Positions 55,214 through 64,000 of a stretch of 64,000 nucleotides of DNA are shown here, one piece after another. The notes below the pieces were generated by a model. The model saw only the letters and a program-made list of their open reading frames with translations. It was not told where the DNA came from and searched no databases. Made by a program: the position numbers and the translations under genes. Location of the stretch: the NCBI RefSeq assembly GCF_048403405.1, contig NZ_CP183129.1. One strand, given 5' to 3'. Positions within the stretch are counted from its first letter, which is position 1. Each line of letters begins with the position of its first letter. This DNA is from Escherichia coli (lineage in GTDB: Bacteria; Pseudomonadota; Gammaproteobacteria; Enterobacterales; Enterobacteriaceae).

Positions 55214-55580
55214 GTCGACAGGGAGTCAGACAACGAAGTGAACATCAGGATGATGACACTTCTGAAGGACACACCAGGATGGTGTTTCAGGGAAAGGCTT
55301 CTGGATGAAGCGAAGAGGATGACGCAGGACGCGTTAAAGGACACCTCCAGGATGGAGAATGAGAACCGGTCAGGATGATTCGGTGGGTCAGGAAGGCCAG
55401 GGACACTTCAGGATGAAGTATCACATCGGGGTGGTGTGAGCAGGAAGCAATAGTTCAGGATGAACGATTGGCCGCAAGGCCAGAGGAAAAGTTGTCAAGG
55501 ATGAGCAGGGAGCAACAAAAGTAGCTGGAATGCTGCGAAACGAACCGGGAGCACTGTGAATACAGTGCTCCCTTTTTTTA
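55214..55580 (+). ncRNA. csrB: CsrB regulatory RNA (CsrA-sequestering; many GGA motifs; strong intrinsic terminator)
   Basis: Starts GTCGACAGGGAGTCAGACAACG...; roughly 18 CAGGA(U/A)G-type GGA motifs counted by eye; ends with hairpin gggagcactgtgaatacagtgctccc plus T8. Confidence 0.9.
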
Positions 55581-55624
55581 TTCCTGCTATCCTTCGCGGC
55601 AGTTTTTCTTATTGAGGTTGCTTT

Positions 55625-56753: not shown

Positions 56754-57203
56754 ATGGCGGAAATTGGTATTTTTGTGGGCACTATGTACGGAAATTCGCT
56801 GTTAGTGGCGGAAGAAGCGGAAGCAATTCTGACCGCGCAGGGCCACAAAGCAACGGTATTTGAAGATCCTGAATTAAGCGACTGGCTGCCCTATCAGGAT
56901 AAGTATGTTCTGGTGGTTACGTCCACGACCGGGCAGGGCGACCTTCCTGATAGCATTGTGCCGCTCTTTCAGGGAATCAAAGATACCCTGGGCTTCCAGC
57001 CGAATCTGCGTTATGGCGTGATTGCGCTCGGCGACAGTAGTTATGTGAATTTCTGCAATGGCGGCAAACAGTTCGATACCTTGTTGCAGGAACAGAGCGC
57101 TCAGCGGGTTGGCGAAATGCTGTTGATTGACGCCAGTGAGAACCCGGAACCGGAAACGGAATCAAATCCGTGGGTCGAACATTGGGGCACGCTGTTGTCC
57201 TGA
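56754..57203 (+). CDS. yqcA: flavodoxin-like protein
   Basis: 149-aa ORF with flavodoxin N-terminal FMN-binding pattern. Confidence 0.85.
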
Positions 57204-57637
57204 TATGTTCAGCGAGCGGTAAATGCCGTTTTAGCGGTGCTGAATCGAATCTTTTCAGGCAAATGCCAGTAAAAACTGCTTCATAGCGCGGATTTTTACT
57301 GGCGTTTGCCTGGAGTCAAGCGATCCATTTCATACTCTTCTTTATTTCTTCGTTTTAACCCTTCCTTTCTTGTTCTTGTTTTCATTTCCGTGAAGTGGAT
57401 TCCACCGTCCAGGGCTAATGCCAAAATCGGGCCTCATTGAACGCATTAATGTTGTGTTGTTGCACGGTGAGCCGCTATGGCGCGCTTTTTATACTGCTAT
57501 TGCCAGATATAAACACGCGCCGTATTCGGCGAACGACCTATAAAAACGGCAAAAAACACCCTACGTCACCTCTGATTTCCTGGCGATGTCGCAGTCCAGA
57601 GTGAGCGTGGCTAACGCGAATTTTCAGGAGTGCAACA

Positions 57638-58990
57638 ATGAGTTCTTTAAGTCAGGCTGCGAGCAGTGTGGAAAAACGCACAAATGCTCGTTACTGGATA
57701 GTGGTGATGTTGTTTATCGTCACATCCTTCAACTACGGCGACCGCGCTACGCTCTCTATCGCCGGTTCGGAAATGGCCAAAGATATCGGCCTTGATCCTG
57801 TGGGAATGGGCTATGTGTTCTCTGCCTTCTCATGGGCTTATGTTATCGGGCAGATCCCTGGTGGTTGGTTGCTGGATCGTTTTGGTTCAAAACGCGTCTA
57901 CTTCTGGTCGATCTTTATCTGGTCGATGTTTACCTTGCTGCAAGGCTTCGTCGATATCTTTAGTGGATTCGGCATTATCGTTGCCCTGTTTACTCTGCGC
58001 TTCCTGGTCGGGCTTGCTGAAGCGCCATCTTTCCCCGGCAACAGTCGCATTGTTGCGGCCTGGTTTCCGGCGCAGGAAAGGGGAACGGCGGTGTCGATTT
58101 TTAACTCCGCTCAATACTTCGCAACGGTGATCTTCGCGCCGATTATGGGCTGGCTGACGCATGAAGTGGGCTGGTCACACGTCTTCTTCTTTATGGGCGG
58201 TCTGGGGATTGTCATCAGCTTTATCTGGTTGAAAGTCATCCACGAGCCAAATCAACATCCGGGGGTAAATCAGAAAGAGCTGGAGTACATCGCCGCGGGT
58301 GGCGCGCTGATCAATATGGATCAGCAAAACACCAAAGTTAAAGTGCCGTTCAGCGTGAAGTGGGGGCAGATCAAACAGCTGCTCGGGTCACGGATGATGA
58401 TCGGCGTTTATATCGGTCAGTACTGTATCAACGCCCTGACTTACTTTTTCATTACCTGGTTTCCGGTTTATCTGGTGCAGGCGCGTGGGATGTCGATTCT
58501 GAAAGCGGGCTTTGTGGCTTCCGTTCCGGCGGTTTGCGGTTTTATCGGCGGTGTGCTGGGTGGGATTATTTCCGACTGGCTGATGCGCCGCACGGGATCG
58601 CTGAACATTGCGCGTAAAACACCGATCGTAATGGGCATGTTGCTGTCGATGGTGATGGTGTTCTGCAACTACGTCAACGTTGAGTGGATGATCATCGGCT
58701 TTATGGCGCTGGCCTTCTTCGGTAAGGGCATCGGGGCGCTGGGTTGGGCAGTAATGGCAGATACCGCGCCAAAAGAGATCAGCGGTCTTTCCGGTGGCCT
58801 GTTCAACATGTTCGGTAACATTTCTGGCATCGTCACGCCAATCGCAATTGGTTATATCGTTGGCACGATTGGCTCGTTTAATGGGGCGCTGATTTATGTT
58901 GGTGTTCATGCCTTAATCGCGGTACTGAGCTACCTGGTGCTGGTGGGCGATATCAAGCGTATCGAGCTGAAACCTGTCGCGGGGCAATAA
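57638..58990 (+). CDS. gudP: glucarate/galactarate transporter (MFS)
   Basis: 450-aa polytopic ORF, first gene of the gudPXD cluster. Confidence 0.9.
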
Positions 58991-58991
58991 G

Positions 58992-60332
58992 ATGACGACA
59001 CAATCCAGTCCTGTTATTACTGATATGAAAGTCATTCCGGTCGCCGGGCACGATAGCATGTTGCTTAATATTGGTGGGGCGCATAACGCATATTTCACTC
59101 GCAATATTGTGGTACTCACCGATAACGCCGGGCATACCGGCATTGGTGAAGCGCCAGGCGGAGAGGTGATTTATCAGACACTGGTCGATGCTATTCCGAT
59201 GGTGTTGGGCCAGGAAGTTGCGCGCCTGAATAAAGTGGTTCAGCAGGTGCATAAAGGTAATCAGGCAGCCGATTTTGATACCTTCGGCAAAGGTGCCTGG
59301 ACTTTTGAATTGCGCGTTAATGCCGTGGCGGCGCTGGAAGCCGCCTTGCTTGACCTGCTAGGTAAGGCGCTGAATGTTCCGGTCTGCGAACTGTTGGGGC
59401 CAGGCAAGCAACGCGAGGCTATTACCGTCCTCGGTTATCTGTTTTATTTCGGTGATCGGACCAAAACCGATCTTCCTTATCTGGAAAATACGCCGGGCAA
59501 CCATGAGTGGTATCAGTTGCGCCATCAGAAAGCGATGAACAGCGAAGCCGTTGTGCGTCTGGCGGAAGCCTCACAGGATCGCTACGGCTTTAAAGATTTC
59601 AAACTTAAGGGCGGCGTGTTACCTGGCGAGCAAGAAATCGACACTGTTCGTGCATTGAAGAAACGCTTCCCGGATGCGCGGATTACCGTTGATCCCAACG
59701 GTGCATGGCTGCTTGATGAAGCCATTTCTCTGTGCAAAGGGCTGAATGATGTTCTTACCTATGCCGAAGATCCATGCGGAGCAGAACAGGGGGTCTCCGG
59801 ACGTGAAGTGATGGCGGAGTTTCGGCGGGCGACCGGCTTGCCCGTCGCGACTAATATGATCGCCACCAACTGGCGCGAAATGGGCCATGCGGTGATGCTC
59901 AATGCGGTAGATATTCCACTTGCCGATCCGCACTTCTGGACGCTTTCCGGTGCAGTCCGCGTGGCGCAGCTTTGCGACGACTGGGGGCTGACCTGGGGCT
60001 GCCATTCCAACAACCATTTCGATATCTCTCTGGCGATGTTTACCCATGTGGGCGCGGCGGCACCGGGTAATCCTACCGCTATCGATACCCACTGGATTTG
60101 GCAGGAGGGCGATTGTCGCCTGACCCAAAATCCGCTGGAGATTAAAAACGGAAAAATTGCCGTTCCTGATGCGCCCGGTCTGGGCGTGGAACTGGACTGG
60201 GAACAGGTACAAAAGGCACATGAGGCCTATAAACGTCTGCCTGGCGGTGCGCGTAACGACGCGGGCCCGATGCAGTACCTGATCCCCGGCTGGACCTTTG
60301 ACCGTAAACGTCCCGTTTTCGGCCGTCATTGA
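58992..60332 (+). CDS. gudX: glucarate dehydratase-related protein (enolase superfamily), function uncertain
   Basis: 446-aa ORF, clear paralog of the downstream gudD. Confidence 0.9.
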
Positions 60333-60352
60333 TTTTGAAAAAGGACATAAAT

Positions 60353-61693
60353 ATGAGTTCTCAATTTACGACGCCTGTTGTTACTGAAATGCAGGTCATC
60401 CCGGTGGCGGGCCATGACAGTATGCTGATGAATCTGAGTGGTGCACACGCACCGTTCTTCACGCGTAATATTGTGATTATCAAAGATAATTCTGGTCACA
60501 CCGGGGTAGGGGAAATTCCCGGCGGCGAGAAAATCCGTAAAACGCTGGAAGATGCGATTCCGCTGGTGGTGGGTAAAACGCTGGGTGAATACAAAAACGT
60601 TCTGACGCTGGTGCGTAATACATTTGCCGATCGTGATGCCGGCGGGCGCGGTTTGCAGACATTTGACCTGCGGACCACTATTCATGTGGTTACCGGGATA
60701 GAAGCGGCAATGCTGGATCTGCTGGGGCAGCATCTGGGGGTTAACGTGGCATCGCTGCTGGGCGATGGTCAACAGCGTAGCGAAGTCGAAATGCTCGGTT
60801 ATCTGTTCTTCGTCGGTAATCGCAAAGCCACACCGCTGCCGTATCAAAGCCAGCCGGATGATAAATGTGACTGGTATCGCCTGCGTCACGAAGAAGCGAT
60901 GACGCCGGATGCGGTGGTGCGCCTGGCGGAAGCGGCATATGAAAAATATGGCTTCAACGATTTCAAACTGAAGGGCGGTGTACTGGCCGGGGAAGAAGAA
61001 GCAGAATCTATTGTGGCACTGGCGCAACGCTTCCCACAGGCGCGTATTACCCTCGATCCTAACGGTGCCTGGTCGCTGAACGAAGCGATTAAAATTGGTA
61101 AATACCTGAAAGGTTCGCTGGCTTATGCAGAAGATCCGTGTGGTGCGGAGCAAGGTTTCTCCGGGCGTGAAGTGATGGCAGAGTTCCGTCGCGCGACTGG
61201 CCTGCCGACCGCAACCAATATGATCGCCACCGACTGGCGGCAGATGGGCCATACGCTCTCGTTACAATCCGTTGATATCCCGCTGGCGGATCCGCATTTC
61301 TGGACGATGCAAGGTTCGGTACGTGTGGCGCAAATGTGTCATGAATTTGGCCTGACCTGGGGTTCACACTCTAACAACCACTTCGATATTTCCCTGGCGA
61401 TGTTTACCCATGTAGCCGCTGCTGCACCGGGTAAAATTACTGCTATTGATACGCACTGGATCTGGCAGGAAGGCAATCAGCGTCTGACCAAAGAACCGTT
61501 TGAGATCAAAGGCGGGCTGGTACAGGTGCCGCAAAAACCAGGATTGGGCGTAGAAATCGATATGGATCAGGTGATGAAAGCCCACGAGCTGTATCAGAAA
61601 CATGGGCTTGGTGCGCGAGACGATGCGATGGGAATGCAGTATCTGATTCCTGGCTGGACGTTTGATAACAAGCGCCCGTGCATGGTGCGTTAA
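60353..61693 (+). CDS. gudD: D-glucarate dehydratase (enolase superfamily)
   Basis: Start [23 protein letters not shown] gives 446 aa (ORF-track 60329). Confidence 0.9.
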
Positions 61694-61767
61694 GACAGAA
61701 AACCAAAACCGGCTTCATAAGAAGTCGGTTTGAGATTACTGACGAAGTGGTTTACGGGGCCGGTTTT

Positions 61768-61799
61768 CCCCCTCACCCTCTCCCCGGAGGGGCGAGGGG
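61768..61799. repeat. GC-rich imperfect inverted repeat (ccccctcaccctctcccc / ggaggggcgagggg) between convergent gudD and barA
   Basis: Read directly; could act as a bidirectional terminator or be a copy of a dispersed GC-rich intergenic repeat. Confidence 0.4.
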
Positions 61800-61863
61800 A
61801 CTGTCTGTGCTGCTCCCAGCATTGGCATTGGACGGAACCTATTTTGACTCGACAAGACGTCCA

Positions 61864-64000
61864 TTACCCGAGAATTTTGCTGGCTTCGCGCGCGACATTA
61901 TCCATCTCGTCCAACAGTTCCAGCAGCTCCGGCTCCAAATCTTCTTCTTTAGTACCGCTACGTAGCTGTTGTTCGATCAGCTGGCAGAGATTCTTCATAC
62001 GCGGCACACCGCTATAGCCGCAACTGCCATGCAGTTTATGAATCAAATCAACCAGGCCTTCCGGGTTTTCTCCAACCAGCTGTTCCTCAACTTTGTTGCG
62101 AACTTCAGGCAGGAAATCGAGTAACATTTGCAGCATATCGCGCGCTAAATCGGTTTTTCCTGCTGCCTGGCGTAGTGCCAGTTGCCAGTCGAGGGTCGCA
62201 TTCGGGTTCACCACAATTTCGTTGACTTCGGGCGTCACGACGCGAGACGAAATACCGCTGCCAGGCTTGTAGCGCAACAACAAATTATGCAATCGCTCTT
62301 CTTCAATCGGTTTCGCCAGATAATCGCTCATCCCTGCGCCAAGCAGCTTCTCTTTTTGCCCGGCCATTGCATGCGCCGTTACCGCGATAACTGGCGTTTG
62401 TTGCTGATGGGGGAGCTGGTGGATGAGTTCGCAGGCCCGAATGCCGTCCATGTCCGGCATTTGAATATCCATTAAGATCAAATCGAACGGCATCTGTTTC
62501 GCCCGTTCAACCGCCTGATGCCCGCTATCGCAAAGTTCCACATGTTGCACCATATCTTCCAGCAATGCGCCGATAAGTTTCAGGTTAGCGGGGTTGTCAT
62601 CAACCGCCATGACTGTCATTGCCAGCTTACTTTCATCGGTTACAGGCAAAAGCGTGTTTTGTTTGTGATGACAAAATTCCGTCAGGGCAGGTAACAGGCG
62701 CGTAGGTGTTAATGGTTTCAGCAGACACGCGCCGATACCATCTTGCTTAAGTTTTTCAGCATTGACTTGTGCATGGCAAGGAAGTGCCAGCATCAGAAAA
62801 TCGGTCATCGATACCGCTTTCGCTAATCGCTCATGTTGCATTGTTAGCGGCTCGCGGAAGGTCACCGCGATGCCTAACAACATCATGTCGTAATGCGCGG
62901 GAGGCAGCGCGGAGAACGTTGGGCTATAAACCACTTCCAGCGGCGTTTCACTTAAAATATCCAGCGTGCATTGCGCTGCTGCGGAGTTTGGTTCGACATA
63001 GGCCAGGCGCTTGCCGGCTAGGCACTGGGTGGATGGCCCTTCGATAATAATGTTCGGGTTCAGATCGAGATTAATGTGGAACCAGAAAGTTGAACCGCGA
63101 TTCGGCTGGCTATGGAACGAAATATCGCCGCCCATTTCATTAACCAGTTTTTGTGTAATCACCAGCCCCAGCCCGGTGCCACCATGACGGCGGGAAATAC
63201 TGGCATCAGCCTGTCGGAAGGCCTGGAATAAGCGCGATTGATCGCGTTCAGGAATACCAATGCCGGTATCCCGAATCTGCACTTCAATCTGCACTTTAGT
63301 ATTACTCAGAGCACGTTTTTCTACCAGAATATCAATGTTGCCATTCTCGGTGAATTTAATTGCATTCCCCACCAGGTTAGTGATGATTTGCTGTAATCGC
63401 AGTGGGTCGCCGATCACGTTATCGGGCACGTCGCTCTTAATATTGAGCGTCAGTTCCAACCCTTTATCGTGAGAAGAATGTGCCAGCAGGGTAACGACTT
63501 CATCCAGCGTGCTGCGTAGTGGGAATGGAATACTTTCCAGAATCAGCTTACCTGCTTCCAGTTTCGAGAAGTCGAGAACATCATTAATAATTGCCAGCAA
63601 ATTATTTGCCGAACGTTCAATCGTATTCAGGTGATCGCGCTGCGTTGGTGTTAATTCTGTTTTCAGCGTCAGGCGGGTAAAGCCAATAACACCATTCAGT
63701 GGTGTACGCAGCTCGTGTGACATATTTGCAAGAAACTCGGATTTAATACGCGCCGCTTCCTGGGCGCGCTTTTTCGCCAGATCCAACTCAACGTTCTGAA
63801 TTTCCATCTGCTCCAGCGTTTCACGCAGATCGGACGTCGCCTGGTCGATATTGTGCTGCATCTCTTCGTGATAAGCAGCCAGCGACATTGCCATCGAGTT
63901 GATACCGTTTTTCAGCATATCCAGCTCGCCGAGCATAAATCCTTCCACACGGCTGTCGAGTTGCCCGCGACGGATGCGGTCGACGGTATTCACCATATTG
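61864..64000 (-). CDS. barA: hybrid sensor histidine kinase BarA, C-terminal part (HisKA/HATPase, receiver, HPt); N-terminus lies beyond the window
   Basis: ORF open to the window edge; H-box [10 protein letters not shown], receiver domain and C-terminal HPt. Confidence 0.9.

Follow-up and report, generated by a model that had tools for sequence, protein, structure and literature searches.

The glucarate operon of Escherichia coli holds two adjacent enolase-superfamily genes, gudX and gudD, and the question raised by this locus is what GudX contributes beside a dehydratase that it so closely resembles. The surrounding pathway is well established: GudP imports D-glucarate, and GudD dehydrates D-glucarate to 5-dehydro-4-deoxy-D-glucarate. 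The gud genes, their homology and the question of GudX were already on record in the 1990s, and the finding of a gudX-gudD pair is correct but already known and in itself ordinary, because the locus is a textbook example in E. coli, with protein structures already solved. The first-pass annotation of the DNA analyzed here, a stretch of 64,000 nucleotides from E. coli (hereafter the window), had described the two genes as diverged tandem paralogs and had recommended GudX, whose role it held to be unresolved, as a target for substrate discovery. Its observation is confirmed, being real and far beyond chance, and its interpretation is supported; its statement about the role is consistent with the accessible literature, in which no publication on the function of GudX was found.

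The genes belong to the gudP-gudX-gudD operon for glucarate use on the E. coli chromosome (Table 1). Several E. coli chromosomes match positions 57638-61693 with 100% identity, and the RefSeq annotation of these identical records gives gudP, gudX and gudD, so that the two gene names proposed from sequence alone agree with the annotated gudX and gudD at 100% identity. Of 5426 complete E. coli genomes, 5423 contain a match to the gudPXD locus. The layout in K-12 is the same (gudP b2789, gudX b2788, gudD b2787), and the flanking genes, queF, syd, yqcC, truC and yqcA upstream and barA downstream, are in the standard E. coli arrangement. The interval 58992-60332, given in the first-pass annotation for the pair, is exact for gudX, but gudD lies outside it, at 60353-61693. 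As read from the sequence, a single nucleotide separates the gudP stop codon from the ATG of gudX, and gudD, 20 nt beyond the end of gudX, has a Shine-Dalgarno sequence of its own. The annotated start of gudD is the ATG at 60353, the TTG at 60329 of the mechanical ORF list being an upstream extension. GudP is an MFS transporter of glucarate, galactarate and glycerate; it matches NCBIfam model TIGR00893 with 536.5 bits (cutoff 395) as well as Pfam MFS_1, and so falls into the family of acid-sugar MFS transporters. Consensus scans for promoters and terminators across 57150-61950 returned fewer hits than shuffled sequence.

Table 1. Features of the gud locus in the window (positions counted from the first nucleotide of the window)
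Feature	Position	Strand	Description
gudP	57638..58990	+	450-aa ORF; opens the operon; named gudP in E. coli records of identical sequence
gudX	58992..60332	+	446-aa ORF starting with ATG; GlucDRP; K-12 b2788; formerly YgcY
gudX-gudD spacer	60333..60352	+	20 nt; Shine-Dalgarno-like AAGGA ahead of the gudD ATG; TGATTTTGAAAAAGGACATAAATATG
gudD	60353..61693	+	446 aa; D-glucarate dehydratase; K-12 b2787; annotated gudD

Two further features were seen around the operon. The small RNA CsrB lies at 55223-55582 on the plus strand, between syd and yqcC, and matches Rfam RF00018 over its full length with 382.9 bits. The sensor histidine kinase gene barA (61864-63996, minus strand) is convergent with gudD and runs past the end of the window; its listed 710-aa ORF begins at an internal ATG and is therefore a truncated view of the gene, which measures 2757 nt in the annotated reference records.

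GudX and GudD are homologous over their full length, with 282 identities in 448 aligned positions (63%; BLASTP, 586 bits, E = 0), as had been claimed, and the motifs quoted as common to both are indeed present in both: three of them, at GudX 14 and GudD 15, at 260 and 261 (DPCGAEQG), and at 338 and 339. At the DNA level, the two genes of the window share 65% identity, with a longest identical run of 20 nt, and identity at third codon positions stays flat at 0.44 from end to end. Gene conversion as the source of the common motifs is ruled out by this flat third-position identity and by identical runs of at most 20 nt; the common motifs are therefore held by selection.

The assignment to the enolase superfamily holds for both proteins. 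GudX matches Pfam MR_MLE_N with 35.9 bits (cutoff 22) and MR_MLE_C with 173.5 bits (cutoff 29.4), and thus has the two-domain architecture of the superfamily, an N-terminal capping domain followed by a C-terminal modified TIM barrel; GudD matches MR_MLE_C with 163.7 bits. The two differ with respect to TIGR03247, the NCBI equivalog model for glucarate dehydratase (cutoff 828.7 bits): GudD passes with 899.3 bits, in agreement with its first-pass naming as D-glucarate dehydratase, whereas GudX stays below with 742.9 bits. By these scores, GudD is a member of the isofunctional GlucD family, whose enzymes dehydrate D-glucarate and L-idarate efficiently to 5-dehydro-4-deoxy-D-glucarate, and GudX is a close relative that is not filed in it. 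The sub-cutoff score also accounts for the cautious RefSeq names of GudX, which in strain 4621, K-12 and the other listed matches appears only as "enolase C-terminal domain-like protein" or "glucarate dehydratase-related protein".

For a comparative set, one genome per species was scanned, which yielded 80 loci, and a neighbor-joining tree of 122 proteins was built with midpoint rooting. All 44 GudX-type proteins fall into one clade, which lies outside the clade formed by all 78 GudD-type proteins from several phyla. GudX is about equally distant from every GlucD, at 63-66% identity; E. coli GudD shares 69-77% identity with the single-copy GlucDs of other phyla. Two histories fit this tree, either an old split or a burst of change after duplication followed by stasis, and midpoint rooting does not separate them.

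Complete loss of the catalytic residues, which would make GudX a non-enzymatic paralog, was the refuting condition set in the first-pass annotation, and the residues of GudX were compared by alignment with the functional positions of GudD. The substrate-binding residues of GudD are H32, T103, Y150, N237, N341, D366, H368 and R422. Its catalysts are K205 and K207 of the KxK motif together with the His-Asp dyad H339 and D313 as general acid/base, and its three ligands of the essential Mg2+, carboxylates or an amide at the ends of barrel strands, are D235, E260/E266 and N289. This set, which we take to be that of Gulick et al. (2000) and of UniProt P0AES2, was the basis of the check. All 16 catalytic, metal and substrate positions of GudD are present at the aligned positions of GudX, which is therefore not a paralog with a lost active site, and all 16 are invariant in 44/44 sequences of the GudX clade. 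The KxK motif corresponds to K204 and K206 and the dyad to H338 and D312, all invariant in the clade, and every substrate-binding residue of GlucD is likewise kept across it; the metal ligands D234, E259, E265 and N288 are invariant not only there but also in 78/78 sequences of the GlucD clade.

Purifying selection acts on GudX as strongly as on GudD. Among the 44 sequences of its clade, 185 alignment columns are invariant, and over 39 orthologue pairs (Nei-Gojobori) dN/dS of gudX is 0.02-0.09, the same range as for gudD, with a median dN(X)/dN(D) of 1.24; these ratios are rough, because dS is near or past saturation in most pairs, but since gudX and gudD come from the same genomes in every case, the one can still fairly be set against the other. 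Residue invariance and dN/dS together lead us to reject a decaying or pseudoenzyme copy.

What sets GudX apart is found elsewhere in the protein. Discriminating positions were defined as those with a conservation of at least 90% inside each clade and a difference between the clades, and the GudX lid signature was derived in this analysis. There are 15 such positions, namely 13 alignment columns and a two-residue deletion counted as two. From GudD to GudX, in GudD numbering, they comprise L28I, S29G, R88H, an inserted G after 88, Q102W, D105E, the deletion of 108-109, I110V, H111N, T114A, D294N, S322A, S338C and G418P; in GudX numbering, the signature reads I27, G28, H87, the additional G89, W103, E106, the two-residue deletion, V109, N110, A113, N293, A321, C337 and P417. 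At the discriminating columns, GudX of the window shows IGHWE--VNANACP and GudD shows LSRQDTTIHTDSSG. Most of the sites lie in the two loops of the capping domain that bear the substrate contacts H32 and T103, or adjoin H339, N289 or R422. Eight of the 15 are within 5 residues of a functional position in the primary sequence, against 4.15 expected (P = 0.03), an enrichment on which we do not lean because it is modest (P ~0.02-0.03) and the sites are clustered. E133, P137, H171, D196 and C248 are further positions whose conservation is confined to GudX. From the alignment, the lid of GudX appears to be remodeled in the 20s loop and in the 100s loop (W103, E106, the two-residue deletion and N110). 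Discriminating sites near the substrate loops are also what a changed substrate specificity would be expected to give.

The first-pass annotation missed that structures of GudX (4IL0, 4GYP) and of a GudX-type homologue (3N6H/3N6J/3PFR) exist, as well as the glucarate context of the gene. K-12 GudX, the protein in 4IL0 and in chains C/D of 4GYP, is the product of the same gene, with the same position, length and start/stop layout, and 441 of its 446 residues are identical to those of the window; the five substitutions are A2T, D58E, I153F, V164L and F268V. The match to 4IL0_A, an entry named "Glucarate dehydratase-related protein" in which GudX was crystallized alone with 8 chains, accordingly covers the full length with 1037 bits and 5 differences. 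GudD of the window differs at 2 residues from K-12 GudD, whose sequence is that of PDB 1EC7. Entry 4GYP is matched by GudX (chain C) and is also listed in the sequence group of GudD (1EC7), and the two proteins were therefore crystallized together, although such a co-crystal would not in itself be proof of a heteromer in the cell. With GudD and other GlucDs (1EC7 and others; mandelate racemase subgroup), GudX has in common the fold, the domain families, the KxK motif, the dyad, the metal and substrate residues and the operon; unlike GudD, it scores below the cutoff of TIGR03247, has a lid signature of its own and belongs to a clade outside all sampled GlucDs. The protein of 3N6H/3N6J/3PFR, deposited as "Mandelate racemase/muconate lactonizing protein", is matched with 784.8 bits by GudX against 625.2 bits by GudD, and it has the GudX lid signature together with N293, A321, C337 and P417. 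It is unlike GudX in having V rather than I at position 27 and DPCIGENG in place of DPCGAEQG, with the Glu kept, and it is an orthologue-level relative from another bacterial family. We take its source to be Actinobacillus succinogenes, and 3PFR to be this GudX-type protein crystallized with D-glucarate.

The gene order gudP-gudX-gudD occurs in 37 loci of the comparative set (among L003-L047 and L080), in addition to K-12 (L002) and strain 4621 (L001), and spans Enterobacterales, Orbales (Zophobihabitans, an Orbaceae genome) and one genome of the Pasteurellaceae. A single gene of the GudD type is found in Pseudomonas, Bradyrhizobium, Bacillus and Paenibacillus, among others. Every context found for a GudX-type gene is a glucarate/galactarate cluster with gudP, gudD, garL, garK or kdgD. 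In Halomonas eurihalina (L043:3866-6341), a GudX-type gene with the full lid signature follows directly downstream of kdgD, which encodes 5-dehydro-4-deoxyglucarate dehydratase, and in Paludibacterium yongneupense (L031:2344-6335), a gene likewise with the full signature stands in the order garK-gudP-gudX. No GudD-type gene was found within 5 kb of the GudX-type gene in either locus, and this arrangement suggests that the GudX type may function alone.

A further arrangement is found in Pantoea stewartii subsp. stewartii CCUG 26359 (L033:5001-6338), where one gene of 445 aa replaces the tandem pair, with garD and gudP upstream and garL downstream. Up to residue ~265, its product resembles GudX (0.72-0.97 identity to Pantoea GudX); from there to the end, it resembles GudD (0.76-0.97 identity to Pantoea GudD), and the clade signature changes along with it. 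The gene is a natural gudX::gudD chimera, which looks like the outcome of unequal crossover of the paralogs within the conserved DPCGAEQG...ATNMIAT block. The three contexts, with kdgD in Halomonas, with garK-gudP in Paludibacterium and with gudP and garL around the P. stewartii chimera, argue that the product of the GudX type feeds the same downstream pathway. Since every genomic context ties GudX to glucarate catabolism, a different substrate is less likely than the earlier recommendation of GudX for substrate discovery implied.

Other tandem pairs were also encountered in the comparative set. In Lucifera butyrica (L060:3512-6323), both copies belong to the GlucD clade and one has an altered lid of its own (LCRHNTD-NT), which suggests an independent duplication. 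A Proteobacteria MAG (L041:4917-7704) has tandem copies of the GudX and GudD types, both of them very divergent. In a Tn-seq study of Dickeya solani, gudX and gudD are listed as fitness genes on galactarate. An action of GudX on galactarate is rejected as the explanation, given that the genes immediately downstream, with the same orientation, are garL, garR and garK and that a garD is present nearby; polar effects therefore explain the phenotype, from which nothing is learned on GudX.

The allele of the window deserves separate mention. Relative to K-12, I153F lies in codon 153 (59448-59450) and F268V in codon 268 (59793-59795), and exact 33-mers around the two are found in only 4 and 10, respectively, of 5426 E. 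coli genomes, the 33-mer with Ile-153 being present in 5392. In the 121 other GudX/GlucD sequences, residue 153 is I, V or L without exception, and residue 268, three residues past the metal ligand E265, is F or Y in all of them. Judged from these substitutions, the I153F/F268V form of GudX could be a slightly impaired, lineage-specific allele.

On balance, we favor the reading that GudX is a weak but catalytically competent glucarate/idarate dehydratase subunit that acts in glucarate catabolism, probably as part of mixed tetramers with GudD. GudX, in this reading an old and separately conserved paralog of GudD, keeps the full acid/base and Mg2+ machinery under an altered lid; it would be made together with GudD and would assemble with it into mixed tetramers like those crystallized in 4GYP. 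A protein that is co-made and co-assembled with GudD in this manner would work inside the glucarate pathway and not in a separate one.

The same data have to be weighed against other readings. That GudX is an independent enzyme whose specificity is set by the lid and whose substrate is a different acid sugar, possibly taken up through GudP, seems unlikely to us. It would explain why the conserved replacements L28I, S29G, Q102W, D105E, H111N and T114A and the deletion of 108-109 flank H32 and T103, why S338C sits beside H339, and why D294N and G418P also adjoin catalytic residues. It would likewise agree with the monophyly of the clade, with its distance from all GlucDs, with the score below the equivalog cutoff and with a selective constraint equal to that on GudD, which argues for a separate function. 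However, the residues that we list as glucarate contacts in GudD are all unchanged in GudX, and all contexts found are glucarate/galactarate clusters. The glucarate complex that we take 3PFR to be also speaks against a substrate of its own, the GudX signature of the 3N6H/3PFR protein being confirmed. We regard it as quite unlikely that GudX is a homo-oligomeric isozyme of glucarate dehydratase that is simply redundant or serves as a back-up, tuned, for instance, to other conditions. The complete catalytic set, the crystallization of GudX alone in 4IL0 and the GudX-type genes in Halomonas and Paludibacterium that lack an adjacent gudD would all fit, but pure redundancy rarely survives at such low dN/dS and with fixed synteny across several orders, and the changes in the lid are conserved rather than drifting. 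Moreover, the isolated protein, GlucDRP, was reportedly found by Hubbard and colleagues in 1998 to be much less active than GudD.

That GudX is non-catalytic, and either partners GudD in a structural or regulatory capacity or is a decaying duplicate, is very improbable. The PDB entry that it shares with GudD, the score below the equivalog cutoff and the two rare substitutions of the window allele at positions otherwise invariant in class would be in keeping with it, but a scaffold would not need 16 invariant catalytic positions, and the ORF is intact and evolves under the same constraint as gudD. A broader proposal, which we put forward tentatively and consider doubtful as a whole, is that the GudX type is an old, constrained subfamily and not a recent E. 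coli duplicate, and that its lid confers either a distinct acid-sugar substrate, derived from host or plant, or an obligatory modulatory role in GudX-GudD tetramers; neither role was found described for GudX-type proteins in the accessible literature.

In the gut, enteric bacteria use glucarate and galactarate as sources of carbon. Work in Salmonella has linked the use of both to growth in the inflamed gut. Within this thoroughly studied pathway of E. coli, GudX is among the few genes without a defined role, despite its crystal structures, and the window adds no testability to this long-standing question. Settling whether GudX serves as a subunit, as a back-up or in the turnover of another sugar acid would close a small and old gap in annotation, and GudX offers a clean case study of the fate of an enzyme that was duplicated with no loss from its active site.
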